From a virus: DNA of 45,032 bases. Shown piece after piece: positions 6,648-26,412 of this stretch; position 1 is the stretch's first letter, and each line of letters starts with the position of its first letter. Under the pieces are notes generated by a model, which did not search any database, was not told the origin of the DNA, and saw nothing but the letters and a program-made list of their open reading frames with translations. Where the stretch lies: positions 1 through 45,032 of IMG/VR virus record IMGVR_UViG_3300010396_000020; one strand, written 5' to 3'. The position numbers were made by a program, and so were the translations under genes.

Positions 6648-7286
6648 TTATTTCAGTCTGTTCTTCCAACCGGATATTGCATTTGTAATTCTGATATAAG
6701 CTCCGGTGGCCCATGTCCTTTTTCCGTAAAGGTTCTGAATTGCAGCTTTGTCAGTTGCATCAAGCATCAGTTTTCCATTATACATGAAATACATGATTGC
6801 TGATGGATTTGGATCGTGTGGAAGGCCCAACGAGTGGCCTGATTCGTGTTGCATTGTATTGAGTGGATTCCATTGGAAGTTTGTTCCAGAGAAGCTCCAG
6901 TTTAGCAAGTCATTGAGTTTGATATGGATTGGACTGTCTGTTCCATCTGGCATCATAGAATATCCCATGATTCCAGTGTTGCCCTTGATGACAGGATCAG
7001 CGTTGCCATCAACCCATTCGAAAGTAATATCTGGATTCTGAGTTGACTTGACATTTACGAGATTGATTGGGATCTCGTCTTGCCATGTCTGCATTACAAG
7101 TCTCATTCCAATAGCAATCTCGTGTTGATCTGGAATATCCTGAGTGCCTTTGAGTAATGCAAAGGTCACAATATTTTTGTTCCACTTGGCAACAACTTGA
7201 TTCTCTGATAACTCATAAGTGATCTTAGTTGGAATCATATTCTCGTCAGGGATGCAACGCATCACACAGCCAATTTGTGGAGTCAT
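6648..7286 (-). CDS. Matrixin-type (M10A, MMP-like) zinc metalloprotease with an N-terminal cysteine-switch-like motif and no signal peptide.
   Basis: HESGHSLGLPHD fits HExxHxxGxxH. The Met-turn is SAIMYFMY. DKAAIQNLYG resembles the MMP D..GIQ.LYG element. VMRCIPDE at residues 8-15 resembles the PRCGxPD cysteine switch. Confidence 0.88.
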   Translation of the reverse strand: MTPQIGCVMRCIPDENMIPTKITYELSENQVVAKWNKNIVTFALLKGTQDIPDQHEIAIGMRLVMQTWQDEIPINLVNVKSTQNPDITFEWVDGNADPVIKGNTGIMGYSMMPDGTDSPIHIKLNDLLNWSFSGTNFQWNPLNTMQHESGHSLGLPHDPNPSAIMYFMYNGKLMLDATDKAAIQNLYGKRTWATGAYIRITNAISGWKNRLK

Positions 7287-8769: not shown

Positions 8770-10425
8770 CTAATTTTCATAGTTCCACTTTTGAGATTTC
8801 TTGTTTTTGCCCCAGCCTTTTTCAACAACAACTTGGATATTGCCTTGAGATGGTTTCAAGTCTTTGGCCCACTTCTTGGAAGCCCCCCAGCCCATTGAGA
8901 CTGAGTTTGTCTTATCCCAAGCCTTTTGCCATGATGGATTGATTCTCTTCCATGTTGCAACAGATGGATCAGACTGTTCTCCTTCTGTGTCGTGAGTAGC
9001 TGCATACTTGGAGAGTCCTAGTTTCTCAAGCAATCCCTCCTTGGTGATTACTCCGTCTTGTACCATCTCTTTGAGTAATGCGTAATACTGAGGATCGATG
9101 GTTAATGAAATCTCTGGCCTGTTGAAATGATGTCTCATTCTCACAGGGCATTTGTCAGGATCGTCAACTTCATCCGGTTCTATGTCAAATAATATGGCCA
9201 AGACTCTATCATATCCCTGTTTCTCAAGTGTCATCTCAAGGATATTTTGTTCTGGCCTGATTTCATTTTCTAAGAATGCATCAGTCTCTTCTTGGTTTGC
9301 ATTTCCTCCAAGGTTGCCTTGCTTGCCCTTTGCCAGCATGAAAGGAGGAATATTGTAAAAGCCAGCAACGGCATCAATACACTCATTCTGGATTGAAACC
9401 ACTCCGTTGATATCTCCAGAGTTTTGAGGAGTTGGGAGGAGCTCCACTGTCTGAGTGACAGCGATATCTTTTCCAAGTGAGTTGTTGCGTCTGAAGAGAA
9501 AGTCATCAAGAACCTTCTGAGGATTCTTATAGTCTCTTGCTGGAACTGTAACCTTGAATATCTGTGGCTTGTGCCAAGTGTACTCGGCAGCTTGTCTCAA
9601 GTCTTGGGCATAAATTGTCAGAAGAGTCTTTCCAATATCTTCGAGAGGATCAATGAGTGACCTTCCATAGTAATCAGCAAACAAGTCAAGATTGAATTGA
9701 TTTACAAAATAGATGCAACGGTTTGCATCAAGCCTTCCTCCATTTGTTGTCAGTCCAACAACTTCGACAGCTTCCAAGGCCCCACTGTCACGATTCAGCA
9801 AAGGCCTTCGAGTAAACTCGGGCCTGATGAGTCTGATTGCTTTTGGTAACTGATAATATCCATTTTCATCTCGCATCTCAGGAAACATTCCAACGGCACA
9901 ACGGCCCTGTTCTCTTGTATAATCATAAGCATTGAATGTCACTGATTCCAAGTCAAGCTTGTCAAACATCTTGTCAATCCAAGATTTTAGTTTCTCTGGC
10001 GACATCTGAGCTGGCGCAATTCCGGTTCTCTCAAAATATGGAATTGTGATTTTTTGTTTTCTCCAAGAGGTCATCAATGATTCCTTGATTTCTTTATCCT
10101 CTCTTGGCTCGATTGATGTTGTGTAGCCGTTGCCAGTAACTAGCTTCTGGATGATGTTGTTTGCCCTCAAGATGTATGGTATTTTAGTATGAATGGCCCT
10201 AAACATGGCTCGCTGTTGTGGGCGATAAGGATCAATGGAAGGATAAATTATCAGTCCTCCAAGCGGCCTCATTGATTGAGAAGATTGTTTCTTCTCAAGT
10301 GCTTGGCCTTTGCCTCTTGGATCAGATGGATCCCATTTTGGAGGATTGACTTCTCTTGTAGTTTTACTGACTGAAATCCATGCCGGAGCTGCAAAGCGTT
10401 GTTTTGATTCAGCCAATGATATCAA
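8770..10425 (-). CDS. Portal protein.
   Basis: 551 aa, directly downstream of the terminase nuclease gene. Contains a portal-like element FYNIPPFMLAKG. The start (TTG 10425 in the track) is uncertain. Confidence 0.7.
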   Translation of the reverse strand: MISLAESKQRFAAPAWISVSKTTREVNPPKWDPSDPRGKGQALEKKQSSQSMRPLGGLIIYPSIDPYRPQQRAMFRAIHTKIPYILRANNIIQKLVTGNGYTTSIEPREDKEIKESLMTSWRKQKITIPYFERTGIAPAQMSPEKLKSWIDKMFDKLDLESVTFNAYDYTREQGRCAVGMFPEMRDENGYYQLPKAIRLIRPEFTRRPLLNRDSGALEAVEVVGLTTNGGRLDANRCIYFVNQFNLDLFADYYGRSLIDPLEDIGKTLLTIYAQDLRQAAEYTWHKPQIFKVTVPARDYKNPQKVLDDFLFRRNNSLGKDIAVTQTVELLPTPQNSGDINGVVSIQNECIDAVAGFYNIPPFMLAKGKQGNLGGNANQEETDAFLENEIRPEQNILEMTLEKQGYDRVLAILFDIEPDEVDDPDKCPVRMRHHFNRPEISLTIDPQYYALLKEMVQDGVITKEGLLEKLGLSKYAATHDTEGEQSDPSVATWKRINPSWQKAWDKTNSVSMGWGASKKWAKDLKPSQGNIQVVVEKGWGKNKKSQKWNYEN

Positions 10426-10451
10426 AAAGGCTGGATAGTATTTTAGTTTTC

Positions 10452-11174
10452 TTAATAACTCATTAGTGAACTGTCAAAACCCATCAGCTTATCAATCTCT
10501 GCATCAATATCCCTCTCGTCTTGCTGGGTTCCAATCCTTCGAATCATTGGAGGAGGCATATTGAGAACATAGGGAAGAGCAACATAACAGGCATAACCCA
10601 AGGCCCAAAATCTGTCATCATGTCTGTTGCTTGGATGCTTGTATCGAATGTTTCCAGCGTCAGTCTTGATGAGTTCCTGTTCCTCGATCTGCCTGACAAG
10701 CTCTGACTCGTTGCCAACAAACAATTTCTTGGAATTGAAGAGTCCTCTGACAATAGAGACAATCTCAACCTTGAGAGTGTCAGTTGTCTTGAGAGGTTCC
10801 ATTCTCAGGCCAGTAACATCAAAGAACTCTTGAGCTGCATCTCCAACTCCAGCCCTATCAAATCCCATCATCTCCCATGGATATTTTGTGTAAATCTTGA
10901 AGATGTCAGATGAAACCTTTCGATAATTGACATGGGGCCAGAGCATGAATGCCTCTTCCCTCAGTGACCTTTCTCCAGTCTTGAGGTCAGTGTCCATCCG
11001 CAATAATTCAAATGCAGAATGGTCAACTCTTTTGGCAACATCAAGGCCTGAGAACCTTGGTATTGGAGGCTCTTCTTGTGATATCAGACGAGGGTTATGG
11101 CCTTGTACTACTCTCGGATTGACTTGGCTTGGAGTAGCGACTCCATACTCCTCAACATATTGGGCCTGACTCAA
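10452..11174 (-). CDS. Large terminase, nuclease (RNase H-like) domain only.
   Basis: Three acidic-residue motifs in TerL order: GLDVAKRVDHSAF, GFDRAGVGDAAQEF and NRHDDRFWALGYACY. The TTG start at 11174 overlaps the upstream TGA. The portal gene follows. Confidence 0.8.
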   Translation of the reverse strand: MSQAQYVEEYGVATPSQVNPRVVQGHNPRLISQEEPPIPRFSGLDVAKRVDHSAFELLRMDTDLKTGERSLREEAFMLWPHVNYRKVSSDIFKIYTKYPWEMMGFDRAGVGDAAQEFFDVTGLRMEPLKTTDTLKVEIVSIVRGLFNSKKLFVGNESELVRQIEEQELIKTDAGNIRYKHPSNRHDDRFWALGYACYVALPYVLNMPPPMIRRIGTQQDERDIDAEIDKLMGFDSSLMSY

Positions 11175-11323
11175 CTTTTAAGAATGCGCCAGATTGATGA
11201 TTCAGAAACTCCAAAGGCATTGGCAATCTCTGGAACCTTGTGCTTGAATTGATAATATGATTGCTTGATATTTTTGATTTCTTGTTCTGTAAAACATAGG
11301 TTTAGTCCTGATGTCTGACTCAA
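11171..11323 (-). CDS. Small helix-turn-helix protein, 50 aa.
   Basis: Hand-translated as (M)SQTSGLNLCFTEQEIKNIKQSYYQFKHKVPEIANAFGVSESSIWRILKS, with an HTH-like segment IANAFGVSESSIWRIL. TTGA overlaps at both ends. Confidence 0.5.
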   Translation of the reverse strand: MSQTSGLNLCFTEQEIKNIKQSYYQFKHKVPEIANAFGVSESSIWRILKS

Positions 11324-11463
11324 GACATTGGCCCCTCTGGAACAATCAATCCAACAATCTCTCCAACATGAACAATCAAAAATCGATTATCGTTTTCTTT
11401 TGGCAAGTCAAGATTTTCAAAGGTTGCCATTCCATCCTTGGCCTCGATAAGTTTTAGATTCAT
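11320..11463 (-). CDS. Small hypothetical protein, 47 aa.
   Basis: Hand-translated as MNLKLIEAKDGMATFENLDLPKENDNRFLIVHVGEIVGLIVPEGPMS. ATGA overlap upstream. Confidence 0.35.
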   Translation of the reverse strand: MNLKLIEAKDGMATFENLDLPKENDNRFLIVHVGEIVGLIVPEGPMS

Positions 11464-11585
11464 AGCCACATCTCCCAGCCAGTGTCATCATGAGTATTAG
11501 CAAAGTGATGTTTCAAGGCATCTCGGCTCTCTGTTGTAAAATCACAATCATCTTGAGGACAGACAAAGAGAACTTGTTCTGACAT
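11460..11585 (-). CDS. C2H2-type zinc-finger micro-protein, 41 aa.
   Basis: Hand-translated as MSEQVLFVCPQDDCDFTTESRDALKHHFANTHDDTGWEMWL. TAATG overlap upstream. Confidence 0.45.
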   Translation of the reverse strand: MSEQVLFVCPQDDCDFTTESRDALKHHFANTHDDTGWEMWL

Positions 11586-11779
11586 TATGCAGACTCTCCT
11601 TCAAAGAGTGGAATCTGTTGCAGCTCTCCAATGATGTTTCCTTTCTTGCCTTCCTCTGGAGGAGTTAGCTTGATGATTTTGTAACGCTTGGGGCCAACTC
11701 TAAAACTTCCTCCAAGATGTGGAATCTCTTCATCAGTCACTAAAAGTTTCTTGCCTTCAAAATGATATTCAGTTCCCAT
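11585..11779 (-). CDS. Hypothetical protein, 64 aa.
   Basis: Track ORF in the gene chain. Confidence 0.5.
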   Translation of the reverse strand: MGTEYHFEGKKLLVTDEEIPHLGGSFRVGPKRYKIIKLTPPEEGKKGNIIGELQQIPLFEGESA

Positions 11780-11805
11780 ATTAAGATTGTAATCTTGCTA
11801 TGATT

Positions 11806-12015
11806 TTAGTCTTTCTTGTTTCCAAGAATTACGGTTGCATAGCCACAGACAGAGCAAAGCACTCCATAAGATTCGTTCCAGTCAACTTTCATCTTGTGAG
11901 TTGTTCTAGTGTTTATCATATACTCTTTGCAAGGGCCTTGGATTTGTCTGATGGATAATGATGCGCCACATCCAAGAGGGCAATAAGTGGGAACAGCATG
12001 GACTTCTTTACTCAT
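11806..12015 (-). CDS. Zinc-ribbon-like protein, 69 aa.
   Basis: Cysteine pairs CPLGC and CSVCG. Overlaps the upstream gene by 4 nt. Confidence 0.6.
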   Translation of the reverse strand: MSKEVHAVPTYCPLGCGASLSIRQIQGPCKEYMINTRTTHKMKVDWNESYGVLCSVCGYATVILGNKKD

Positions 12016-12404
12016 ACATTAATCACATTTCCTTGAAGTGCTTGCCATTGGGCGAATCGTTTGCCTTTATACAATAGACTTTTTTCTTTCTCATACCAAT
12101 TATGTTGCCAAGTCACTCCAAATTCTCCAGAGTTCTCTCTAAAGAAGATATGACATTTGACACATTGGATGATATTTGATTCGTGGCCAAATGTTTCAAC
12201 TATATCAGTTTCTAAGTGAGGACAATCTGTCTGATGTGGATCAAGAAGTTTTTCATTATAAGAACGATATTGAAAGGCCTTGGTTCCCTCTTGCACTCCA
12301 ACCTTCTTCCAGAATTTATCAAATTGCTCAGCTGTGAGAGTCTTGAGTTTACCATTTACTTTGATTATTACTCGTTGATATGGAAGATGAATTTCTTTCT
12401 TCAT
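12012..12404 (-). CDS. Hypothetical Cys/His-containing protein, 130 aa.
   Basis: Track ORF with a 4-nt overlap upstream. Contains CPH...CVKCH. Confidence 0.6.
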   Translation of the reverse strand: MKKEIHLPYQRVIIKVNGKLKTLTAEQFDKFWKKVGVQEGTKAFQYRSYNEKLLDPHQTDCPHLETDIVETFGHESNIIQCVKCHIFFRENSGEFGVTWQHNWYEKEKSLLYKGKRFAQWQALQGNVINV

Positions 12405-12694
12405 TGTGACTCGGCCCTATAATCAATCTCAACAAACTCCGGATAACATTTCTTGCAAAAAGTGTCATGGCCTTTGCCGTCACAAGCTCCGCATTTCTGC
12501 GATTGGTCAAGACGGTTCTCATAGGTAAAGTAAAAGATTCCAGTTCCTCCACACTCTCCACAATAGGCCTTCTTGAGTCTGAAGATAGTTCCACAGTTCC
12601 AGCATGAAGGGATTCCGAACTTGATACAGATTCTCTCCCAAAGATATTGCAAGTCAATCATGAAACAAATCAAGGATCTCATACTATTAAACAT
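12401..12694 (-). CDS. DnaJ-type zinc-finger-like protein with two CxxCxGxG repeats.
   Basis: CGECGGTG and CGACDGKG match CxxCxGxG, with additional CWNCG and CKKC pairs. Confidence 0.6.
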   Translation of the reverse strand: MFNSMRSLICFMIDLQYLWERICIKFGIPSCWNCGTIFRLKKAYCGECGGTGIFYFTYENRLDQSQKCGACDGKGHDTFCKKCYPEFVEIDYRAESQ

Positions 12695-12986
12695 CTTGCG
12701 AGATTTCAGTCAGGATGAGTTTGCCGTCAACATACTCCATCTGTTTTCTGTTGGGCTTGTTATCTTCAAGAGTTGTCTTTCCCTTGATGACTCTCAGTTT
12801 GCGTTTGTATCTGACAGCTCTTGGATTACTTCTCAAGCGATAACCACAGCATGGACACCACAGGCCCTCAACCTTGATGAAAGTTTCACAGATTTGACAG
12901 CGTTTCTGGCCTGATGCATATCTTCCCATTCCTGTTGGCTTGGGGGCATGATACTCTGGCCTTTCACAAATTCCCTTGCAAGTCAA
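12687..12986 (-). CDS. Zinc-ribbon protein, 99 aa.
   Basis: CQICE...CPCCG. The TTG start at 12986 overlaps the upstream TGA. Confidence 0.6.
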   Translation of the reverse strand: MTCKGICERPEYHAPKPTGMGRYASGQKRCQICETFIKVEGLWCPCCGYRLRSNPRAVRYKRKLRVIKGKTTLEDNKPNRKQMEYVDGKLILTEISQDV

Positions 12987-13075
12987 TGAAGTTTCATCTC
13001 CACGATTGCAAACAACACTCCAGCCCAGAACATGGCAATTCCCCAGCCAATAGTAAAACCAAGATACCTATCCAT
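12983..13075 (-). CDS. Single-TM micro-protein, 30 aa.
   Basis: Hand-translated as MDRYLGFTIGWGIAMFWAGVLFAIVEMKLH. Its stop forms a TTGA overlap with the next start. Confidence 0.3.
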   Translation of the reverse strand: MDRYLGFTIGWGIAMFWAGVLFAIVEMKLH

Positions 13076-13250
13076 ATCGATTATCCCACTTCCAAACCCA
13101 GAAATATCCAGCTGGAATCCAATGCTTTACTCCGTCATATTCTTCATAGTGGCCTCCTTCTGGCTCTTCTATTTTCTTTTGTAAGAACCTGAAGAGGAAG
13201 TTATCAAAGAAGCGATTCAAATTAACATTTACCTCGTTTTGAAATCTCAT
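13068..13250 (-). CDS. Hypothetical protein, 60 aa.
   Basis: Track ORF in the chain. Confidence 0.4.
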   Translation of the reverse strand: MRFQNEVNVNLNRFFDNFLFRFLQKKIEEPEGGHYEEYDGVKHWIPAGYFWVWKWDNRYG

Positions 13251-13392
13251 TATTGGCTTGTCGATGACGATTTAGACTTTCTGCTTCTAAATGATTTTCT
13301 AAATGCTCTTGACACCACCATCCATCGCCTAAATGACAAGTGCATCCGATAGTTGCTCTCCGATTACATTCTGGATAAATACAACGAGTCAT
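13222..13392 (-). CDS. Cys/His micro-protein, 56 aa; paralogous to 27153..27353 and 27350..27475.
   Basis: Hand-translated as MTRCIYPECNRRATIGCTCHLGDGWWCQEHLENH..., which fits the pattern C-x4-C ... C-x2-H. Confidence 0.4.
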   Translation of the reverse strand: MTRCIYPECNRRATIGCTCHLGDGWWCQEHLENHLEAESLNRHRQANNEISKRGKC

Positions 13393-13393
13393 G

Positions 13394-13561
13394 TTAACGA
13401 GAACCTCGTAATGTTGAGAGAATCTCTTTGTATGTCACGGGGTTATGTAAGTGAAAGTTACAAACAGGATTTCCATTTTGATTAGTATAATTTCCACCGT
13501 AGGAACGTAATCCGACTAACAAGCAATCTGAACAAAGTAACTTCTTTGTCTCAGAACTCAT
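13394..13561 (-). CDS. Cys-containing small protein, 55 aa.
   Basis: ATG 13561 forms an ATGA overlap with the upstream micro-ORF. The track start at 13579 is a GTG further upstream. Contains CSDC...CNFH. Confidence 0.5.
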   Translation of the reverse strand: MSSETKKLLCSDCLLVGLRSYGGNYTNQNGNPVCNFHLHNPVTYKEILSTLRGSR

Positions 13562-13659
13562 TTCTTCCACAATCTCCACATGATATATCCAACAGCTCCG
13601 ATCCAGATTGCAGCTCCGGCAGCTCCAATGATGAGAACATCATGGAATGTGAGAATCAA
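13558..13659 (-). CDS. Single-TM micro-protein, 33 aa.
   Basis: Hand-translated as (M)ILTFHDVLIIGAAGAAIWIGAVGYIMWRLWKK. TTGA overlap upstream and ATGA overlap downstream. Confidence 0.35.
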   Translation of the reverse strand: MILTFHDVLIIGAAGAAIWIGAVGYIMWRLWKK

Positions 13660-13883
13660 GCGTTACTTGTCACCACAACTTCGAATATCATTCCTTCTTT
13701 TACAACAACAAACTCATTTGGAATAATGGTTCCTCCTTTCTCTTTTGGATGTGAGTATTGGATTGTATAGAGAGGAGTCATTGAGGGAGGCTGTTCACTT
13801 GGCCAAGCTAGATTTACTAGCTGATAATAATTGATTGTTCTGCATTCCCATTCAACTTTAACAGCATTGACTATGATTTTCAT
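13656..13883 (-). CDS. Beta-grasp, multiubiquitin-like small protein, 75 aa.
   Basis: MKIIVNAVKVEWECRTINYYQLVNLAWP...LYTIQYSHPKEKGGTIIPNEFVVVKEGMIFEVVVTSNA matches my recollection of the Multiubiquitin-domain pattern: IxVN, an LA(F/W)P element, (F/Y)T(V/I)xY, and G..(I/L).P....V.(V/I)K(E/D)G..F.V..T. Not searched. Confidence 0.5.
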   Translation of the reverse strand: MKIIVNAVKVEWECRTINYYQLVNLAWPSEQPPSMTPLYTIQYSHPKEKGGTIIPNEFVVVKEGMIFEVVVTSNA

Positions 13884-14047
13884 TTTATTCTCACATACTT
13901 TCTAGGATATGTTGCCCTGAATGATTGAACGTGCATACAAGTCCAAACTGTGGTTTGGCCCTCAGAGTGGCAGATTGTTCTCTCTTTTTGTATCTCCCTG
14001 ATTGCTTCAGGATCACACTTGCCACAGGTAATCATTATCTCTGTCAT
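13880..14047 (-). CDS. Cys-containing micro-protein, 55 aa.
   Basis: Hand-translated as MTEIMITCGKCDPEAIREIQKERTICHSEGQTTVWTCMHV... ATGA overlaps at both ends. Confidence 0.4.
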   Translation of the reverse strand: MTEIMITCGKCDPEAIREIQKERTICHSEGQTTVWTCMHVQSFRATYPRKYVRIK

Positions 14048-14193
14048 TTGGAATAAACCTCGTCAAGTATCATAGCAAAAATCAACTGCATTCCATTTAA
14101 CTGAGTTATTTGTGAATGCCCTTTCTTCTTCATTGACTTGGCATATCCAGTCAAAAATTCCACGACATCGGAGGTTTCTATTGGTTTATCCAT
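14044..14193 (-). CDS. Small hypothetical protein, 49 aa.
   Basis: Hand-translated as MDKPIETSDVVEFLTGYAKSMKKKGHSQITQLNGMQLIFAMILDEVYSK. ATG 14193 lies 22 nt downstream of the promoter box at 14216..14227. Confidence 0.4.
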   Translation of the reverse strand: MDKPIETSDVVEFLTGYAKSMKKKGHSQITQLNGMQLIFAMILDEVYSK

Positions 14194-14215
14194 TGAGGAA
14201 GATTCTGATTTTCAA

Positions 14216-14227
14216 CCTATTAATGAT
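14216..14227 (-). promoter_or_regulatory. TATA-like promoter box inside the terminase-splitting cassette.
   Basis: Minus strand reads ATCATTAATAGG, 22 nt before ATG 14193. The flanking attatgat is shared with the box at 2843. Confidence 0.5.
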
Positions 14228-14237
14228 TATGATGGAA

Positions 14238-14576
14238 TTATTCTCGCCAGATGCCATTTGTTACAAATCCATGGATTGTCTTGTCTGGATCATACTCTAT
14301 GAGAATTGATGGATGGATTGTGAGTTTGGATACATCTCCATTCTCAAGTTCTTTATCGCCTGTAATATCCCAGCATCTATGAGGATTTGGCTTGTCAGGA
14401 TGTGGACATCTTGAAGCGCAAGTATTGAGAGCAAACTCCACGAATTGCATATACGCTTTTGGATCAGGAATTGGAAGGCAAATCTTCCAGTCTTGCAGAT
14501 ACTCAGCATAATAGATATCTCCAGCTTGTAATTGGCCCTTGAAACCTTTTGGTAAGACTCTCAACTTTAGTTCCAT
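14238..14576 (-). CDS. DUF6527-like protein with a Cys/His cluster, 112 aa.
   Basis: CASRCPHPDKPNPHRCWDITGD...KLTIHPSILIEYDPDKTIHGFVTNGIW matches my recollection of the DUF6527 pattern W.(F/I).GD ... T.(S/H)PSIL ... H.F(V).(D/N)G.I. TAATG overlap with the TerL ATPase stop. Confidence 0.5.
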   Translation of the reverse strand: MELKLRVLPKGFKGQLQAGDIYYAEYLQDWKICLPIPDPKAYMQFVEFALNTCASRCPHPDKPNPHRCWDITGDKELENGDVSKLTIHPSILIEYDPDKTIHGFVTNGIWRE

Positions 14577-15625
14577 TAATCTCTCATATCCTCATATCCC
14601 AAGAACGCTGATAAATCTTCTGGCTGTTTCTCAGGATCAGTGATTACTTGGATTTCATCCTCTGGGATTGCAGCTCGCTTGGTTGTGGTAAAGCGGCACA
14701 TATACTCTTGTGGAAAGTCAACCCTTGGATCCTTCTTCTGTCTCTCGATGTACTCCTTGGATAAGACTCCATACTTGAGGGCCTCTGTGTAATCAACCTC
14801 AATGTAATGGTAATGATTCTTCTTTGGAACTGACTTTGCATCCATGGTAATATCATAATAGAATCCTCGCTTTCCGTTTGGAGTTGATTCAAAGACTAGA
14901 TCACCAATGTCTCTGTTGGCCAAGAGTGGAGTAAGTGCCGTATAGATTGGATAGTCATCAATAGCTCCAGAGTGTGCGGCCTCGGTAAAGAAAACGGAGA
15001 TGACATCATCAAGGCCTCTGAAGCTCTGGGCCTTGCCTGACTTGCTTGCAGCTGCGCAAAAGTGTCGATGTCCATTGTAAAATTCAACCATTGGAATCGG
15101 ACTCTTGGAGTATCGCATCACTAAATCTCCATAGGCCCATTTCTTACCGTCTTTGTCAGTGACTCCATTATGGAATAATTCATCAAACCTGTCAAGAACC
15201 TCGACAGCAACATTAAGCTCGTTTCCAGCAACAATCAAAGAATCATGGCCAGCATACTTGGAAAATGTGAGTCTTGACTCTGCCCTTATCCTTCCATCAG
15301 TAAAGGCCCCCTTTCTTGTCTTGTTTACAATTACTGTATGATATTTTTCCACATCATACTCGTATTGAATCTGATAGGGAACCATTGGAACAGGCTGATT
15401 GAGGAGTCTTGATTGGGGCCATCCAATCATTCTGTTGTACTCTTGGACAGCATAGGAATATTCTTCATACGTACAAGTTTGGATGTCTGGCAACAATAAC
15501 GGATCAAGCTGGGGGAAATCTCTCACATCTGCATATCTAAGGCCCTTGTCCTCGATTACTTGGTCAACAGTCTTGGCAGTTAGTGAGCCAATCTTTCTGG
15601 GATCAAAGTTGATGAGTGATGTCAT
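14576..15625 (-). CDS. Large terminase, ATPase domain only.
   Basis: Deviant Walker A VNKTRKGAFT; Walker B-like DDVISVFFTEAAH; coupling motif FESTPNGKRGFYYD; QEYMCRF near the C-terminus. No nuclease motifs. ATGA overlap with the small terminase gene. Confidence 0.82.
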   Translation of the reverse strand: MTSLINFDPRKIGSLTAKTVDQVIEDKGLRYADVRDFPQLDPLLLPDIQTCTYEEYSYAVQEYNRMIGWPQSRLLNQPVPMVPYQIQYEYDVEKYHTVIVNKTRKGAFTDGRIRAESRLTFSKYAGHDSLIVAGNELNVAVEVLDRFDELFHNGVTDKDGKKWAYGDLVMRYSKSPIPMVEFYNGHRHFCAAASKSGKAQSFRGLDDVISVFFTEAAHSGAIDDYPIYTALTPLLANRDIGDLVFESTPNGKRGFYYDITMDAKSVPKKNHYHYIEVDYTEALKYGVLSKEYIERQKKDPRVDFPQEYMCRFTTTKRAAIPEDEIQVITDPEKQPEDLSAFLGYEDMRD

Positions 15626-16140
15626 GATGTGATTGATTGGGCCTCTACTTTCTTTTTAAGCTCTTCAATCTTGATTCCATACTTGGCAAGGATAGCCTGT
15701 TCAATCTTATCCTCAGTCAATGGCATCATATTGAGGCCAGCGATTTCTTTTGTTGTTTCCTTGTTCTCCTTGCGTAAGTTGGCTATGATACTGATAACCA
15801 TTCCAAGACTCTTGCCAGCCTTGGGAAGTAATTTGTTTAGTTTCTTGATTTCAGCGTTGTTTTCTACTATGTAACTTTCAAGATATAGAGCCAGTCCATC
15901 TCTTGCATCCTGTTCTCTCTCGATGAAATTAGTTGTGTCTCTGACTTCGGTTAGATAGATTCGTTTGTAATTTGCAATAGTCTCTCGCTTGTGGCCTGTC
16001 TCTCTTGAGATTAATGATAAGTTGAACTCTCCTTGTTTGAAATACGTATTACATTTGGCTTGGATATCTTCAGACTTGATTCCACGCTTGGCCTCTCCCC
16101 CCTTTTTCTTCTTCTGTCCGCTATTCCGGTCAGTTGGCAT
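15622..16140 (-). CDS. Small terminase subunit (putative).
   Basis: 172 aa, immediately upstream of and overlapping the TerL ATPase gene. Basic N-terminus, an HTH-like segment LSLISRETGHKRETIANY and a coiled-coil-like C-terminal half. Called mainly from position. Confidence 0.55.
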   Translation of the reverse strand: MPTDRNSGQKKKKGGEAKRGIKSEDIQAKCNTYFKQGEFNLSLISRETGHKRETIANYKRIYLTEVRDTTNFIEREQDARDGLALYLESYIVENNAEIKKLNKLLPKAGKSLGMVISIIANLRKENKETTKEIAGLNMMPLTEDKIEQAILAKYGIKIEELKKKVEAQSITS

Positions 16141-16162
16141 TATGAAAATTATAATCTTACTA

Positions 16163-16174
16163 TTTAATAAATTG
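16163..16174 (-). promoter_or_regulatory. TATA-like promoter box of the packaging operon.
   Basis: Minus strand reads CAATTTATTAAA, 22 nt before ATG 16140. Confidence 0.55.
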
Positions 16175-16268
16175 CTTGTTAAATTGAAAAAGAAGGTATC
16201 AGAAGGGCCATTCCAGAGTTGTTTATCCTATCCATAATCTTCCCCTTCAAGGCCAAAAGACTTCCTCT

Positions 16269-16286
16269 CACTATGTTTCCATAGTG
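16269..16286. other. Perfect 7-bp stem with a 4-nt loop, in the 210-bp non-coding gap upstream of the small terminase promoter.
   Basis: cactatg tttc catagtg. Confidence 0.5.
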
Positions 16287-16384
16287 TCGTTGTGTGTCAT
16301 CTGCTTGATAGAGACTGGATGGCGTTGGTTTTTTACATACCCAATATGCCTTATGGATATACTAGAATTTCACTCTTAAAAAGA

Positions 16385-16558
16385 TTAGAGAGGAATTACT
16401 GGAGTCACAGTCATCTTATACACGCCTGTTCCTTTCTTGAATCTGATAATTACCTCTGATAGATTAGTATCAATGGTAACGTCATCAAGTTTGACTCTGT
16501 CTATTCCTATGTTTGCATCCTTGAAGGTGATATTATCTCCCATGGGAATCTTCTTCAT
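16385..16558 (-). CDS. Small hypothetical protein, 57 aa.
   Basis: An internal ATG at 16558 of track ORF 16385..16660 gives MKKIPMGDNITFKDANIGIDRVKLDD... The upstream part of the track ORF overlaps the preceding gene and a T-rich tract. Confidence 0.4.
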   Translation of the reverse strand: MKKIPMGDNITFKDANIGIDRVKLDDVTIDTNLSEVIIRFKKGTGVYKMTVTPVIPL

Positions 16559-16625: not shown

Positions 16626-16874
16626 TTATCCCATGAGGGTTTGAATCTCACGAAATACATTGAGGAATTTGTTGCCTCTGTCAGTTGTCTTGAACTTGCC
16701 TTCTGAGTTCATATTCAGGAAGGTTTTCTGTTGCAAGAGTGCAAGATACTGTTTGAGCTGTCCATAGGATATGTGTGCATCAAACATTATGTGAGTCTTG
16801 GAATGATAGCCGTCAGCACAGATTTCCAGTATCTCACTGATGATGTCATGTCTGCCTCTGTAATTTACATCCAT
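16626..16874 (-). CDS. Archaeal-type winged-helix DNA-binding protein (HTH_45-like).
   Basis: RGRHDIISEILEICADGYHSKTHIMFDAHISYGQLKQYLALLQQKTFL...KTTDRGNKFL fits the pattern of small archaeal wHTH regulators. A promoter box lies 22 nt upstream. Confidence 0.65.
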   Translation of the reverse strand: MDVNYRGRHDIISEILEICADGYHSKTHIMFDAHISYGQLKQYLALLQQKTFLNMNSEGKFKTTDRGNKFLNVFREIQTLMG

Positions 16875-16896
16875 AACAAAGTTCTATATTTTTAAT

Positions 16897-16908
16897 CTTA
16901 TTAACATT
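16897..16908 (-). promoter_or_regulatory. TATA-like promoter box.
   Basis: Minus strand reads AATGTTAATAAG, 22 nt before ATG 16874. Confidence 0.55.
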
Positions 16909-17007
16909 ATGAAAGAATCTGGAGTCAACTCCTTCTCTGGCCCCAGATTCCTAATGATCTAACAGACGAGATGTCTGCAAGCAAAGATATGATTGTATTT
17001 CAGCCTA

Positions 17008-21208: not shown

Positions 21209-22108
21209 TCAGTCCTCATTCTCCGGATGCTTCTTGGCATAATCCTTGGCAAACTTTTCCAAGGCTCGTTTCTCTGCATTCTCTCGTTCAACTATGTCTT
21301 GGAATTTATCCATATCAAGCAAGTTCTGGATATTGCTTGTGACAAGGTTCTTCAATACCTGTGGCTTGAGTGCATCAAGTTCCCATGATTCGTCACCATG
21401 TCTGTCAGTATATCTTCCAGCCCTTGAGTCAGTCATCTTGACAGGGTTTGGAGGAGGATTATATCTTTGAATCTGTGCCATAGTCAAAGCAACTTTCTCA
21501 ACTTCGATGTCACATCCAAACTCTGTCAGTCTGTCCTTGATGTCTCTGACCATATCTTCTCCAGATGGATCATGATCACCAAAGTAAAGTATCGTGCAAC
21601 TCTTGTCATCCTGTTCATCCATGATTCGAAGAGCTGCGTCATGCATGGCACTAACTGAGGAATATCCCTTGTTTACCATTAGATGGACATGATATTCTTG
21701 GGTGATTGGAAGCAAGACTCCAGAGAGTGCATCCTTCTCAACCCAAACCTCAACGTAATTGTCTTGACCTTGCCATCTGTTTCGTCTGTATGAGTATAAC
21801 GCTGACTTTACAATATCTTGGATTCCATCCCATGAGCTCGGAATCTTTGGAACTCTGACTCTGTCCTCAATGATGTTCCAGTCAACTTGGCCGCACATTC
21901 TGGCATCGGCAAGCATCTTTCCAATCTTCTTATAAGATAACATAGTATTTGGGATGATATCTTGAGAGACAAGCTGGTAATACAACTGTCTAAGAGTTAG
22001 CTTGTAGCCTTGCTGACCATAATCTTCCACAACTCCGATTATCTGATCCAAGAGTCTTTGATTGGCTGAATTGAGTTTCTTTGGTTCTCTGTATTGTTCT
22101 GTTCCCAT
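21209..22108 (-). CDS. Stand-alone Topo VI subunit A / Spo11-like protein (winged-helix with catalytic Tyr plus Toprim; 'Mini-A'-like).
   Basis: LTLRQLYYQLVS is a CAP-type element with a YY pair. VWVEKDALSGVL carries the Toprim Glu. LYFGDHDPSGEDMVRDI carries the Toprim DxD. All three occur in the canonical order. 299 aa. Confidence 0.72.
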   Translation of the reverse strand: MGTEQYREPKKLNSANQRLLDQIIGVVEDYGQQGYKLTLRQLYYQLVSQDIIPNTMLSYKKIGKMLADARMCGQVDWNIIEDRVRVPKIPSSWDGIQDIVKSALYSYRRNRWQGQDNYVEVWVEKDALSGVLLPITQEYHVHLMVNKGYSSVSAMHDAALRIMDEQDDKSCTILYFGDHDPSGEDMVRDIKDRLTEFGCDIEVEKVALTMAQIQRYNPPPNPVKMTDSRAGRYTDRHGDESWELDALKPQVLKNLVTSNIQNLLDMDKFQDIVERENAEKRALEKFAKDYAKKHPENED

Positions 22109-22522: not shown

Positions 22523-23035
22523 TCAATGAGATTCCTCCATAGGAATTGAACGTTTGAGAATTTGTTCTTGAACCCATTCTTTGATTTCTTTTGCTGACAT
22601 ACTCCAATCAATATCTTGGTTGATTGTTGCAATCTTTTCCCATTTGAAAGTTTGATAGTAACTCAAAGCGAGTTTATCATCTTCCAAGGCATCAGCTAAC
22701 AAGGCTAATGCAAGTTGTGAAGGGCCAGAGCCTCCATATCCCCAAGCAAATCCATCCGGAGAGTGATTGACCAAGTCTAGTCTTTTGTTCAATGGGATTG
22801 TTTCGATTCCATTGGTGACGTTGACTTCCCAATTCAAATCTCCATGGGATTTCCCTTGGTATGATTTCTCTCCTTGTAAAATAAAGAGAGGTTTCTTCGT
22901 TTTCTGATCCCTTGCGATTCTGCCTGTGCTGAGTCCATGATATCGGCCTCCACAAGCGCATTGGCATACGTCAGATTTTGCGTGTGCGCATCTCTCATCA
23001 TGCTTTCTTCCATTCACTTCGATTTGTTGTGACAT
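22523..23035 (-). CDS. Hypothetical protein with an N-terminal Cys cluster and a conserved-looking HSPDGFAWGYGGSGP domain.
   Basis: CAHAKSDVCQCACGGRYHG, then DLVNHSPDGFAWGYGGSGPSQLALALLAD. I recall this pattern from uncharacterised phage and mobile-element proteins but cannot name the family with certainty. Confidence 0.6.
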   Translation of the reverse strand: MSQQIEVNGRKHDERCAHAKSDVCQCACGGRYHGLSTGRIARDQKTKKPLFILQGEKSYQGKSHGDLNWEVNVTNGIETIPLNKRLDLVNHSPDGFAWGYGGSGPSQLALALLADALEDDKLALSYYQTFKWEKIATINQDIDWSMSAKEIKEWVQEQILKRSIPMEESH

Positions 23036-23475: not shown

Positions 23476-23628
23476 TTAAATTCCTTCTTTTATTTTTGCT
23501 TGAATTGACTTGGAGAGATTTCTTGTCTCGTCATTAATTATACCTTGAACCCAAGTCTTGACTTTGGGATCTGTGATAGAAACTGAAATTACAAGGGCCT
23601 TGTCCTCGTCTTTTTTGTGTTTTGCCAA
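23476..23628 (-). CDS. Ribbon-helix-helix-like micro-protein, 50 aa.
   Basis: Hand-translated as (M)AKHKKDEDKALVISVSITDPKVKTWVQGIINDETRNLSKSIQAKIKEGI. TTG 23628 lies 24 nt downstream of the box at 23653..23664. Confidence 0.4.
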   Translation of the reverse strand: MAKHKKDEDKALVISVSITDPKVKTWVQGIINDETRNLSKSIQAKIKEGI

Positions 23629-23652
23629 GTGATATTCTATGAATATTATAAG

Positions 23653-23664
23653 TTTATTAAGATT
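23653..23664 (-). promoter_or_regulatory. TATA-like promoter box.
   Basis: Minus strand reads AATCTTAATAAA, 24 nt before TTG 23628. The 12-mer is identical to the box at 22474. Confidence 0.5.
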
Positions 23665-23673
23665 ACGAAAGAA

Positions 23674-24375
23674 TCAATGGAGTTTGTAATCCTTCTTATA
23701 GACAGTATAGTAACTGAGGACTCTCTGGGGATGAATCATCTTGGCCCCAAGTCCGGCTCTCTTTCCACGATATCCCACTCTTGCACATCTTTGAAAGTCT
23801 GAGACTGGATTGAGCCTCTTGTCATAACAGACATCCATGTAAGTTGTAACTGGAATCTCATAGCCTTGCTCGTAACGTTCTGATATCTTGACAACAAGTC
23901 CGTTCTTGGAAACCCTGTTGAACTCCTTCCAAGTCTGTTGGAAGAAATCCTCTGGAGGAACCCACTTGTCATCTATCTGTCTGAAATAATAGAGCCTGTC
24001 TGGAGTCTTATGCGTCTTGATTCCAAATGCCTCGACTCCATTGGCTGGCTTCATGAATGGAGGATCAAAGTAAATGATATCAAAAGAATTGTCAGCGAAT
24101 GGCAAGTGTCTAAAGTCTGCCATGACCTGAAGTTTTGCATCTGGGGATTGGTCAAGGAATGTCACATCCCATGATTTTTCTCCTGTCAGTAATGATGTTG
24201 TCTCAATGTTTGGACTCCAACTTCGTTGCTGGCCAGCTGTAACATCAAGGATAGTTTTTCCAGCCTCCCAATACCATTCCAAGATCCGCTTGAGTGCAAA
24301 GTTAAGAGGTTTCATGTAAATCAAATCTCTGTCTGGCTTGGTATTTCCCTTTTCTACAAAAAGATTTGTAATCAT
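23674..24375 (-). CDS. DNA methyltransferase (N6-adenine or N4-cytosine type).
   Basis: ILDVTAGQQ is SAM motif I-like. FADNSFDIIYFDPPFMKP carries the DPPF catalytic motif IV. Confidence 0.65.
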   Translation of the reverse strand: MITNLFVEKGNTKPDRDLIYMKPLNFALKRILEWYWEAGKTILDVTAGQQRSWSPNIETTSLLTGEKSWDVTFLDQSPDAKLQVMADFRHLPFADNSFDIIYFDPPFMKPANGVEAFGIKTHKTPDRLYYFRQIDDKWVPPEDFFQQTWKEFNRVSKNGLVVKISERYEQGYEIPVTTYMDVCYDKRLNPVSDFQRCARVGYRGKRAGLGAKMIHPQRVLSYYTVYKKDYKLH

Positions 24376-24642: not shown

Positions 24643-25080
24643 TCATTTGGTCACCTTTTTTCTTTCATGATATCTATTTCTTTGTTGTATATTGTGACAG
24701 ATTCGACACATTCTATGATTGTCATTTCTTTTTAAGATGTTATGTCCTGATAATGGATGTCCTCTTGGACAGTGAGTTCTTTTTGCTTGAATTGCCACAA
24801 ATCCTATTCCTCTTAGTAGATTTTCTCTTCTTGTTACTGGCTGGAGATGGTCAGGATTTACACAGGCTCGGTTTCTGCATAAGTGATCCAGTTCTAATCC
24901 TTCAGGTACTTTTCCTTTATTTACTTGATATGCGAATATGTGAGCTTGGGTTGTTTTCCCTGAAGAGATGCCAAATCTTCCATATCCATTTTGTGCTTGA
25001 GCTCCAATCCAGTTCCAGCATCCAGAGATTGGATCGACTTGTACCTTATCCCAGAATCTTTCGAGAAGTTGATCTGTCAT
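24643..25080 (-). CDS. HNH endonuclease (phage HNH_3-like).
   Basis: GCWNWIGAQAQNGYGRF...AHIFAY...LELDHLCRNRACVNPDHLQPVTRRENLLRG. Confidence 0.85.
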   Translation of the reverse strand: MTDQLLERFWDKVQVDPISGCWNWIGAQAQNGYGRFGISSGKTTQAHIFAYQVNKGKVPEGLELDHLCRNRACVNPDHLQPVTRRENLLRGIGFVAIQAKRTHCPRGHPLSGHNILKRNDNHRMCRICHNIQQRNRYHERKKVTK

Positions 25081-25811: not shown

Positions 25812-25957
25812 GTCATCCAGTCCGTTAATCTTGTTTGGAATTTATCATGACAGAAGCAATTTCTATTTTCACACAAGTCTTGAGGAAGGCCTCCAATGAT
25901 GAGCATTTTCTTCTCCGTTCCAAAGAACATAAAACAGTTGTTACAGCAAGGATTCAT
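25808..25957 (-). CDS. Cys-rich micro-protein, 49 aa.
   Basis: Hand-translated as MNPCCNNCFMFFGTEKKMLIIGGLPQDLCENRNCFCHDKFQTRLTDWMT. ATG 25957 lies 22 nt downstream of the box at 25980..25991. ATGA overlap with PCNA. Confidence 0.45.
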   Translation of the reverse strand: MNPCCNNCFMFFGTEKKMLIIGGLPQDLCENRNCFCHDKFQTRLTDWMT

Positions 25958-25979
25958 AGAAAGTTATGAATATTTTAAA

Positions 25980-25991
25980 CTTAATAAGATA
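25980..25991 (-). promoter_or_regulatory. TATA-like promoter box.
   Basis: Minus strand reads TATCTTATTAAG, 22 nt before ATG 25957. Confidence 0.6.
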
Positions 25992-26412
25992 TCGCTAGAA
26001 TCTTGTTTCTGACTAGCGAAATAGCTTCTTGGAATGTCCTTCCTCTTCCAATCATTTGATACAGACATACCTTGAATTTGACGAAGGTTTCCATATCCAA
26101 GGAATCAGGTTTGACCATCTTCTCAACTTCAGTCAGTTCCTTTTCTTGATTGAAAAGAGGTTTCCTATATTCTCCATTCAGGCGTTGCTTTTCTCGATTG
26201 TGATTGTAACACAACAACTGAATCAGATGCTTGACAATATCAAAATGCTCAAGATAGAATCTAAACATGGCTTCAGATGATTTGAATCGCTTTCTCTCAA
26301 TGTTACCACTTCCAAAGACATGATCAACACAGAGAAGATTCTCATCTGTTATATCACACTTGACACACTTGTATCCAAGCTTTTCAATGAGTAAATCTCG
26401 GTATTTACCCAT
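25981..26412 (-). CDS. HNH endonuclease.
   Basis: CVKCD...LLCVDHVFGSGN...LQLLCYNHNREKQ. The likely start is ATG 26412; the track start at 26457 overlaps the upstream gene by 53 nt. Confidence 0.68.
   Translation of the reverse strand: MGKYRDLLIEKLGYKCVKCDITDENLLCVDHVFGSGNIERKRFKSSEAMFRFYLEHFDIVKHLIQLLCYNHNREKQRLNGEYRKPLFNQEKELTEVEKMVKPDSLDMETFVKFKVCLYQMIGRGRTFQEAISLVRNKILAISY

Follow-up and report, generated by a model that had tools for sequence, protein, structure and literature searches.

A probable two-chain large terminase encoded on either side of a hypervariable gene island in archaeal tailed viruses

Introduction

The subject of this study is the large terminase (TerL) of a tailed virus represented by a stretch of 45,032 nt (IMG/VR virus record IMGVR_UViG_3300010396_000020, positions 1–45,032), called the window in the following. 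The window carries two TerL genes, one for an ATPase and one for a nuclease, separated by 3,401 nt, and these probably encode a two-chain large terminase, an old and stable arrangement in archaeal tailed viruses in which the two genes flank a hypervariable island of accessory genes. For tailed phages, archaeal tailed viruses and herpesviruses alike, a TerL with fused ATPase and nuclease has been regarded as universal (e.g. PMC7824862), and current models of the packaging motor rely on motion between the two linked domains (PMC13595956). Full-text searches of the open-access literature, covering thaumarchaeal virus papers and others, found no published description of a two-gene TerL, in agreement with the original prediction, which had been made from the letters of the window and whose author knew of no such split.

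Gene order around the terminase genes

Between 8.7 and 16.2 kb every gene of the window lies on the minus strand, and the order of transcription is a 172-amino-acid (aa) open reading frame (ORF), the 349-aa ATPase, 17 short ORFs (the cassette), the 240-aa nuclease and the 551-aa portal protein. The features are as follows.

15622–16140, minus strand: candidate small terminase (TerS), 172 aa, assigned from position only; 4-nt overlap with the ATPase start
14576–15625, minus strand: TerL ATPase subunit, 349 aa, assigned from profiles, motifs and fold
14238–14576, minus strand: cassette ORF 1, 112 aa, weak match to DUF6527 (BubE-like; PF20137, E 2.8e-3, below the curated cut-off)
14194–14237, minus strand: intergenic gap, the only sizeable one in the cassette, with TATA-like ATCATTAATAGG
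11171–14193, minus strand: the other 16 cassette ORFs, 30–130 aa, recognized by the ORF chain, weak Pfam matches and codon-position bias relative to L060, a strain 95–97% identical to the window in DNA sequence
13656–13883, minus strand: Multiubiquitin (beta-grasp) ORF, 75 aa (PF14452, E 1.5e-8, above the curated cut-off)
12401–12694, minus strand: double zinc ribbon ORF, weak Pfam match
11460–11585, minus strand: C2H2 zinc finger ORF, 41 aa, weak Pfam match
11171–11323, minus strand: helix-turn-helix protein ORF, weak Pfam match
10452–11174, minus strand: TerL nuclease subunit, 240 aa, assigned from profiles and from sequence and fold matches
8770–10425, minus strand: portal protein, 551 aa (Pfam Phage_portal, E 3e-4; PHROG_12)

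The portal gene starts 26 nt downstream of the nuclease gene. The 172-aa ORF matched no Pfam or PHROG family, and the relatives L001, L002 and L035 have an ORF of 150–189 aa at the same place, overlapping the ATPase gene; its identity as TerS is that of a candidate. In a soil relative (L004/L005), a gene for a 236-aa HNH endonuclease (9294–10004) occupies the TerS-like position and overlaps the ATPase gene.

The ATPase and nuclease gene products

The ATPase ORF matched Pfam Terminase_6N (E 8e-4, positions 70–214 of a profile of 215), the TerL family PHROG_2 (E 6e-9) and PHROG_7579. Its AlphaFold2 model, calculated with 42 homologues (predicted local distance difference test, pLDDT, 88; predicted template-modelling score, pTM, 0.81), gave as the best Foldseek matches the ATPase domain of T4 gp17 (2o0h, E 1e-10) and that of P74-26 TerL, and full-length gp17 was matched over its N-terminal ATPase part only. 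The three motifs expected of the additional-strand, catalytic-glutamate (ASCE) ATPase of a large terminase, Walker A, Walker B and the coupling (C) motif, are all present. The Walker A motif NKTRKGAFT (residues 101–109) is deviant, with K102 and K105 invariant across the homologues; throughout the archaeal clade the form NK[ST]RK[GI]G[AF]T, in which the glycine is not followed by a lysine, replaces the classical GK[ST]. The Walker B-like element VISVFFTEAAH holds the catalytic E215, which is invariant, as is R203, located 12 residues before it; from its position we take R203 to be a candidate trans-acting arginine finger, like R139 of P74-26. The coupling motif ESTPNGKRG and the element QEYxCxF form conserved columns in the homologue alignment, so that the motifs quoted in the original prediction are indeed present. 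The protein stops 37 aa past QEYMCRF, and residues 311–349 form a tail of lower model confidence.

The nuclease ORF matched Pfam Terminase_6C (E 8e-3), PHROG_5909 and PHROG_5713, and by sequence the nuclease domain of G20c/P74-26 TerL (5m1f, E 2e-5). Its predicted fold matched the same structure with an E value of 4e-11, and RuvC more weakly (about 1e-4, Foldseek). A disordered N-terminal extension of about 39 aa is followed by an RNase H-like core (residues 40–205) and by an acidic and hydrophobic C-terminal tail, which is conserved and contains ...RDIDAEIDKLMGFD.... The acidic catalytic triad of an RNase H-like terminase nuclease (D45, D106 and D186/D187) is present: D45 is near-invariant, D106 and H185-D186-D187 are invariant across the nuclease homologues, and in the alignment with the G20c nuclease these residues face its D, D and HDD motifs. 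The gene starts with TTG, which overlaps the upstream stop codon (TTGA).

Taken together, the profiles and predicted models confirm that the first ORF is a complete ASCE ATPase domain of TerL, and the second a complete TerL RNase H-like nuclease, in each case without anything more. The claims that each ORF is only one half of TerL, with the nuclease half directly upstream of the portal gene, are borne out by the Terminase_6N, PHROG_2, Terminase_6C and 5m1f matches, by a fold limited to the ATPase part of gp17 and by the gap of 26 nt. Two tests had been set for these claims, and they withstood both: profile and structure searches found no nuclease domain in the ATPase ORF, and the second ORF is TerL-nuclease-like.

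Conservation of the split across relatives

Contigs of relatives from JGI, ENA, Logan, NCBI and IMG/VR were scanned with ATPase, nuclease and portal profiles; a single-protein search of IMG/VR gave no match, whereas the alignment-based scans did find relatives. Among 5.8 billion clustered proteins, 183 ATPase homologues were found, of which the best 120 are all 224–395 aa long, together with 22 nuclease homologues, all of 145–250 aa. A HMMER search of 1.84 billion representatives gave 54 matches at E <= 1e-10, and 52 of these are 400 aa or shorter; the two longer ones are P0155, an ATPase-only protein with a LAGLIDADG intein, and P0188, a fused TerL of 522 aa. P0155 (637 aa) is of the archaeal type, and its intein interrupts the coupling motif itself, separating TPNG from (K)RGFF.

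Nineteen contigs carry the two as distinct same-strand genes, with a gap of 923 to 6,751 nt. A stand-alone nuclease gene followed by the portal gene, 30 nt to 1.3 kb further on, was found in about 36 distinct contigs. In an IMG/VR contig of 52,067 bp (loci L018 and L079), the ATPase gene (17434–16502) and the nuclease–portal pair (50929–48170) lie on the same strand, and the halves are separated by 17.6 kb or more in the case of a circular genome and by 33 kb otherwise; a gene for a LamG/pentaxin protein is among those downstream of the ATPase gene of this contig. No archaeal-type contig scanned encodes a fused protein at this position, and in neither the window nor any close relative are both domains on one polypeptide. 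The relatives are assigned to Nitrosopumilaceae, Nitrosarchaeum, Marine Group I, metagenome-assembled genomes of Nitrososphaerota and Ca. Nitrosotenuis aquarius.

Over 12 genomes the pairwise identities of the ATPase, nuclease and portal proteins fall jointly to about 35% (r = 0.93–0.97), which indicates that the three genes are a co-inherited core and that the split predates this divergence. The best reading of these comparisons is that the split is old and stable across the lineage. The first of two options left by the original prediction, a two-chain TerL, is thereby strongly supported, since the split is found in every relative down to this level of identity, the catalytic residues are kept and both halves co-diverge with the portal.

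Position of the break, fused relatives and bacterial two-cistron forms

Three fused relatives (P0188, P0292 and P0232; 522–532 aa, on low-GC contigs, with the same deviant type of Walker A, VKSRKIGATE) match the ATPase profile (E 7e-52) up to residue 331 and the nuclease profile (E 8e-29) from residue 351 onwards. The two genes therefore stem from one TerL, cut in the interdomain linker. What is left of this linker is a tail of 37 aa on the ATPase and an extension of 39 aa on the nuclease in the window, and about 24 and 6 aa in the marine clade.

Two-cistron TerL loci were also found in prophage-like bacterial contigs (L040, L042–L044, L047, L048, L050, L052, L053 and L057), binned to Acidobacteriota, Bryobacteraceae, Thermomicrobiales and others. 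Here, an ATPase ORF of about 250–290 aa comes directly before a nuclease ORF of about 200–260 aa, adjacent or overlapping, and the halves are 1.1 kb apart in bacterial L056. The nuclease ORF has its own Shine–Dalgarno sequence and no fixed frame relation to the ATPase ORF, and the Walker A motif of this group is the classical NC[ST]RQxGKS. Fused forms (L038, P0209, P0269 and phage Tunturi_4) are interleaved with the bacterial split forms; Tunturi_4, a phage of Tunturiibacter, is the one relative of this bacterial group in culture, and its TerL is fused. In a neighbour-joining tree of ATPase domains the deep nodes have 2–40% support, which does not resolve one from several fissions. The archaeal-type group and the bacterial-type group each contain split as well as fused forms, and fission or re-fusion at the linker has probably occurred more than once.

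In the GenBank phage collection no close relative was found: the matches of the ATPase half were to TerLs of the Ackermannviridae type, with some 23% identity, and those of the nuclease half to Thermus and B3 TerLs. BFVD lists a few short nuclease-only viral entries, of which one, Roseophage SIO1 gp2, was checked as a possible true split; it is an old record with overlapping fragmented ORFs and was judged an annotation or sequence artefact.

A two-chain packaging motor and its alternatives

As a tentative proposal, for which the case falls a little short of balanced, the tailed viruses of ammonia-oxidising archaea may package DNA with a naturally two-chain TerL, in which an untethered ATPase ring translocates the DNA and the nuclease is a separate, portal-associated subunit. 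The ATPase subunits would form the ring motor that moves DNA; the nuclease subunit would join non-covalently, probably at the portal via its charged and hydrophobic C-terminal tail, and would make the initiation and headful-termination cuts. The TerL–portal contact is made via a charged and hydrophobic C-terminus or via the nuclease domain in T3, lambda, SPP1, P22, phi29 and HK97, with the nuclease domain in contact with the portal in phi29 and HK97 (PMC13595956). The proposed docking of the nuclease tail on the portal fits this documented rule.

Several points weigh against a two-chain terminase in this lineage. The Pfam scores of both halves are below the curated cut-offs, and the assignments rest on the PHROG, PDB and fold matches. 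At two host-chromosome loci (L035 and L036) and at L032–L034 the 10 kb on either side of the ATPase gene hold neither a nuclease nor a portal gene, which indicates that an ATPase-only protein can exist without a linked nuclease gene. The physical assembly of the two proteins is something that we infer. In addition, the two domains of T4 gp17 were reportedly made as separately active ATPase and nuclease by Kanamaru et al. in 2004, with no packaging reconstituted in vitro, so that a working two-chain motor is not to be taken for granted.

One alternative is that the nuclease-like protein is divorced from the ATPase, which would then run as a phi29-like ATPase-only motor while the RNase H-like protein resolves branched or concatemeric DNA or has a similar role. 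RuvC resolvases do share the fold, if with the weaker Foldseek matches; ATPase-only genes are found in host chromosomes without a nearby nuclease gene, and on one viral contig the nuclease gene is at least 17.6 kb away; and phi29-type motors run without an active nuclease. We nevertheless regard this explanation as unlikely. The best sequence and fold matches of the nuclease are all TerL nuclease domains; its gene always adjoins the portal gene and co-diverges with the ATPase and portal genes; its C-terminal tail is retained, charged and hydrophobic as in portal-binding TerL C-termini; and the fused relatives show a common origin of both genes in one TerL. The large ORFs yielded no further candidate for a terminase nuclease.

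A second alternative, in which a one-chain TerL is still made because the halves are rejoined by a split intein, an intron, ribosomal bypassing or frameshifting, is highly improbable. It has precedents: in marine metagenomes a split intein divides a gp17-like terminase in two, and a homing endonuclease gene lies between the pieces (PMC2677866), recoding over gaps of 7–10 nt has been proposed in Streptomyces phage ter genes (PMC10732093), and the relative P0155 has its conventional LAGLIDADG intein in the ATPase. However, no Hint or intein match was obtained in either half (Pfam, E up to 1). N-inteins are 88–105 aa long and C-inteins 33–54 aa, the latter with HN and then C, S or T at their end (PMC2677866), whereas the ATPase tail has 37 poorly conserved aa, and the 39-aa extension of the nuclease is not conserved, reads GHNP at this point and shrinks to about 6 aa in the marine clade; neither the intein pieces nor a homing endonuclease gene between the halves, as in fractured genes, is present. 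No homing endonuclease match was obtained among the 17 cassette ORFs, the only HNH gene of the window being at 24643–25080, and no Rfam family, intron or other, was found in 10000–16500 (E <= 1), so that the ribozyme structure which a group I or II intron would bring to the boundaries is not seen. The spacer of phiHau3-type recoding is 7–10 nt (PMC10732093) and that of the window is 3.4 kb; across the relatives the interval ranges from 0.9 to at least 17.6 kb and is filled with densely packed genes under purifying selection. Each half also has its own start codon, coupled to the upstream stop (TAATG and TTGA). The original prediction had suggested a search for intein, intron or bypass signatures at the two boundaries; none appeared, and at the level of sequence the rejoining mechanisms are excluded.

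A third alternative, of a chimeric assembly or of a terL in a defective genome that an inserted element has recently disrupted or turned into a pseudogene, is hardly credible, even though the source is a metagenomic contig, the cassette is very variable and homing endonuclease genes are present in the lineage. A second assembler gave the identical sequence over both junctions; at 97% identity, the strain variant L060 spans one of them, that of the nuclease; the same arrangement recurs in dozens of contigs (JGI, ENA, Logan and NCBI); and both halves are under purifying selection (12 synonymous versus 3 non-synonymous codon changes in the nuclease relative to the L060 strain). The second assembly is an ENA contig of 45,050 bp, an independent MEGAHIT k141 product with 100% identity to positions 452–21174 of the window, and thus, as far as sequence data go, disposes of the concern about chimeric junctions raised by the original prediction. 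Positions 1–123 of the window are an exact copy of 44910–45032, and the unit lengths of the two assemblies agree (45,050 − 141 = 45,032 − 123 = 44,909 bp), so that both, with overlaps of 141 and 123 nt, are circular closures of one 44,909-bp genome. The terminal 'repeat' of the window is therefore the k-mer overlap of the assembler and not a physical terminal repeat. The window is best read as a complete genome of 44.9 kb, assembled as a circle, from a tailed virus whose hosts are ammonia-oxidising archaea (Nitrososphaerota/Nitrosopumilaceae-type). Its circular assembly would fit circularly permuted, headful-packaged DNA, without demonstrating it.

Implications of a two-chain terminase

Gene fission is in itself a common evolutionary event. 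If the two-chain terminase holds, translocation in this lineage cannot depend on a covalent hinge between ATPase and nuclease, as in the 'inchworm' model of T4 and the extension–contraction model of HK97, and the linker would be a recurrent evolutionary fission point, as the same split in bacterial prophages indicates. Such viruses would offer a natural experiment on which domain touches the portal, on the need for a tether in translocation and on the coupling of cutting to head filling. TerL also serves as the standard marker in phylogeny and in the detection of viruses, and what is recovered as 'TerL' from these abundant viruses of nitrifiers is half an enzyme.

In the 341-kb contig of Marine Group I thaumarchaeote L19a (L035, 9441–10792), a TerS-like ORF and an ATPase-only TerL lie in the host chromosome, flanked on one side by a Y-family DNA polymerase and on the other by a Type I restriction-modification operon. 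The pair is reminiscent of NitKor-E1, an 'enigmatic' TerS and TerL element (PMC6563490); it may be a satellite or a relic, or may have been domesticated. Modularity of the terminase may let cryptic elements or satellites bring their own motor and recognition subunits and borrow the nuclease and portal of a helper virus, a possibility suggested by such TerS-like and ATPase-only pairs in host chromosomes without portal and nuclease genes (compare PMC6563490).

The accessory-gene island between the halves

The interval at 11171–14576 holds 17 same-strand ORFs of 30–130 aa chained by overlaps of 1–29 nt, exactly the number and the overlapping chain given in the original prediction, and is interrupted by gaps only at 14194–14237 and 11780–11805, both short. 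The start codon of cassette ORF 1 overlaps the stop codon of the ATPase gene (TAATG). The AT-rich, TATA-like ATCATTAATAGG at 14216–14227 precedes the ATG at 14193 by some 28 nt. It is similar to D3, a promoter-like motif repeated in this genome, and is plausible as a putative promoter. The testable micro-ORFs are real genes under purifying selection: in the eight cassette ORFs that could be compared with L060, the substitutions fall at codon positions 1, 2 and 3 in the numbers 14, 5 and 40 (p = 7e-8), a third-position bias, and the cassette frames show 36 synonymous versus 15 non-synonymous codon changes.

At 16 loci the interval consists of 4–21 same-strand ORFs with a coding fraction of 0.83–1.0, and almost half of the interval ORFs (107 of 221) are singletons. 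Only two ORFs of the window (11585–11779 and 12687–12986) have homologues in the cassettes of relatives. Even between near-identical genomes there is gene-for-gene replacement in the island: in L060 a radical S-adenosylmethionine (SAM) gene (1694–2818) takes the place of 11810–12401 of the window, which holds two ORFs of 130 and 69 aa, and the segment 11463–11587 with the 41-aa C2H2 ORF is lacking. The cargo in the intervals of other relatives includes a PD-(D/E)XK nuclease, a DruA-like protein, a metallophosphatase, a phosphoribosyl pyrophosphate (PRPP) synthetase, methyltransferases and a cupredoxin. Since the gene content differs in every genome, even in strains 95–97% identical, the interval is a hypervariable island, a hotspot for the gain, loss and exchange of small accessory genes, and not one mobile cassette, and the gaps of 0.9 kb in some archaeal relatives, together with the adjacent bacterial cistrons, mean that insertion of a cassette need not have caused the split. 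The second option of the original prediction, a gene split by an accessory or mobile cassette, thus survives in that both halves are intact, but not as a single mobile cassette, and insertion is not required as the cause. A free-standing homing-type nuclease, which the original prediction gave as a plausible mechanism for this, exists elsewhere in the genome but has no counterpart in the cassette.

The DUF6527-like gene for the 112-aa protein lies two genes upstream of the Multiubiquitin gene. In bacteria, DUF6527 is BubE, the serine protease of the ubiquitination-like Bub operons (bioRxiv 10.1101/2024.11.21.623953), and a viral pair of a ubiquitin-like protein and a BubE-like protein without E1 or E2 might be a mimic or serve in counter-defence. 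With its ubiquitin-like, nuclease, radical SAM and DruA-like cargo, the island is a possible place to look for archaeal anti-defence functions.

Other features of the genome

Outside the packaging region, the following features were recorded.

24643–25080, minus strand: HNH_3 homing-type endonuclease (annotation)
22523–23035, minus strand: DUF6166 protein (annotation)
21209–22108, minus strand: topoisomerase-like protein (PHROG_6247, E 1.5e-97)
6648–7286, minus strand: matrixin-type Peptidase_M10 in the structural module, also present in the relative L001
1426–1811: three diverged 86-nt direct repeats inside ORF 1278–2348

A family of 53-nt repeats (2817–2869, 16871–16923, 23627–23679 and 25954–26006) lies directly upstream of four minus-strand starts. 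On the coding strand its core reads ATCTTATTAAG, a spacer, ATATTCATAACTTT and ATG, and the repeats look like archaeal modules of a promoter and a leaderless start.

Comparison with known systems

The canonical one-chain TerL (T4 gp17, Sf6 gp2, P74-26/G20c and HK97) has the same folds, the same active-site motifs and the same TerS-like and portal gene neighbours as the two genes described here. It differs in being one polypeptide, whereas in this lineage there are two, encoded from 0.9 to at least 17.6 kb apart. The canonical Walker A motif also has the lysine of GK[ST], which is absent here, with conserved lysines located upstream instead (NK[ST]RKxGxT); this is reminiscent of the deviant Walker A of the lambda gpA type.

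In herpesviruses, the TerL homologue pUL15 is encoded by two exons that flank other genes on the opposite strand and are spliced to give one mRNA and one protein. The coding sequence of TerL is likewise interrupted by kilobases with other genes, but in the present viruses each part has its own start and stop and the intervening genes are on the same strand. A separately encoded nuclease in the packaging module is shared with the HK97-type terminases, which, from the work of Kala et al. in 2014, are said to need a separate HNH endonuclease, and in the relative L004 the ATPase gene is immediately preceded by a gene for an HNH protein. HK97 TerL, however, keeps its own RNase H-like domain and has HNH as a helper, whereas here the RNase H-like domain itself is separate.

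The 'fractured' genes with split inteins (Dassa et al. 2009, PMC2677866) likewise have an essential phage gene in two pieces with coding sequence between them. They carry intein halves and a homing endonuclease and break inside a conserved motif, whereas the present genes have no intein halves, enclose 4–21 unrelated genes, with no homing endonuclease among those of the window, and break at a domain boundary. The bacterial two-cistron TerLs show fission at the same linker as the archaeal group, yet without an island between the halves.

The gp16 protein of phi29 is likewise an ATPase chain without a covalently attached active nuclease. It differs in its vestigial nuclease-like C-terminal domain, its packaging RNA (pRNA), its protein-primed unit-length DNA and its lack of a nuclease partner. 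In the window, no pRNA or other Rfam family was found in 10000–16500, the only stretch scanned, and no search for a terminal protein was made. An intact TerL-type nuclease gene adjoins the portal gene, so that the lineage is distinct from a phi29-like ATPase-only system in keeping an intact nuclease as a separate gene.

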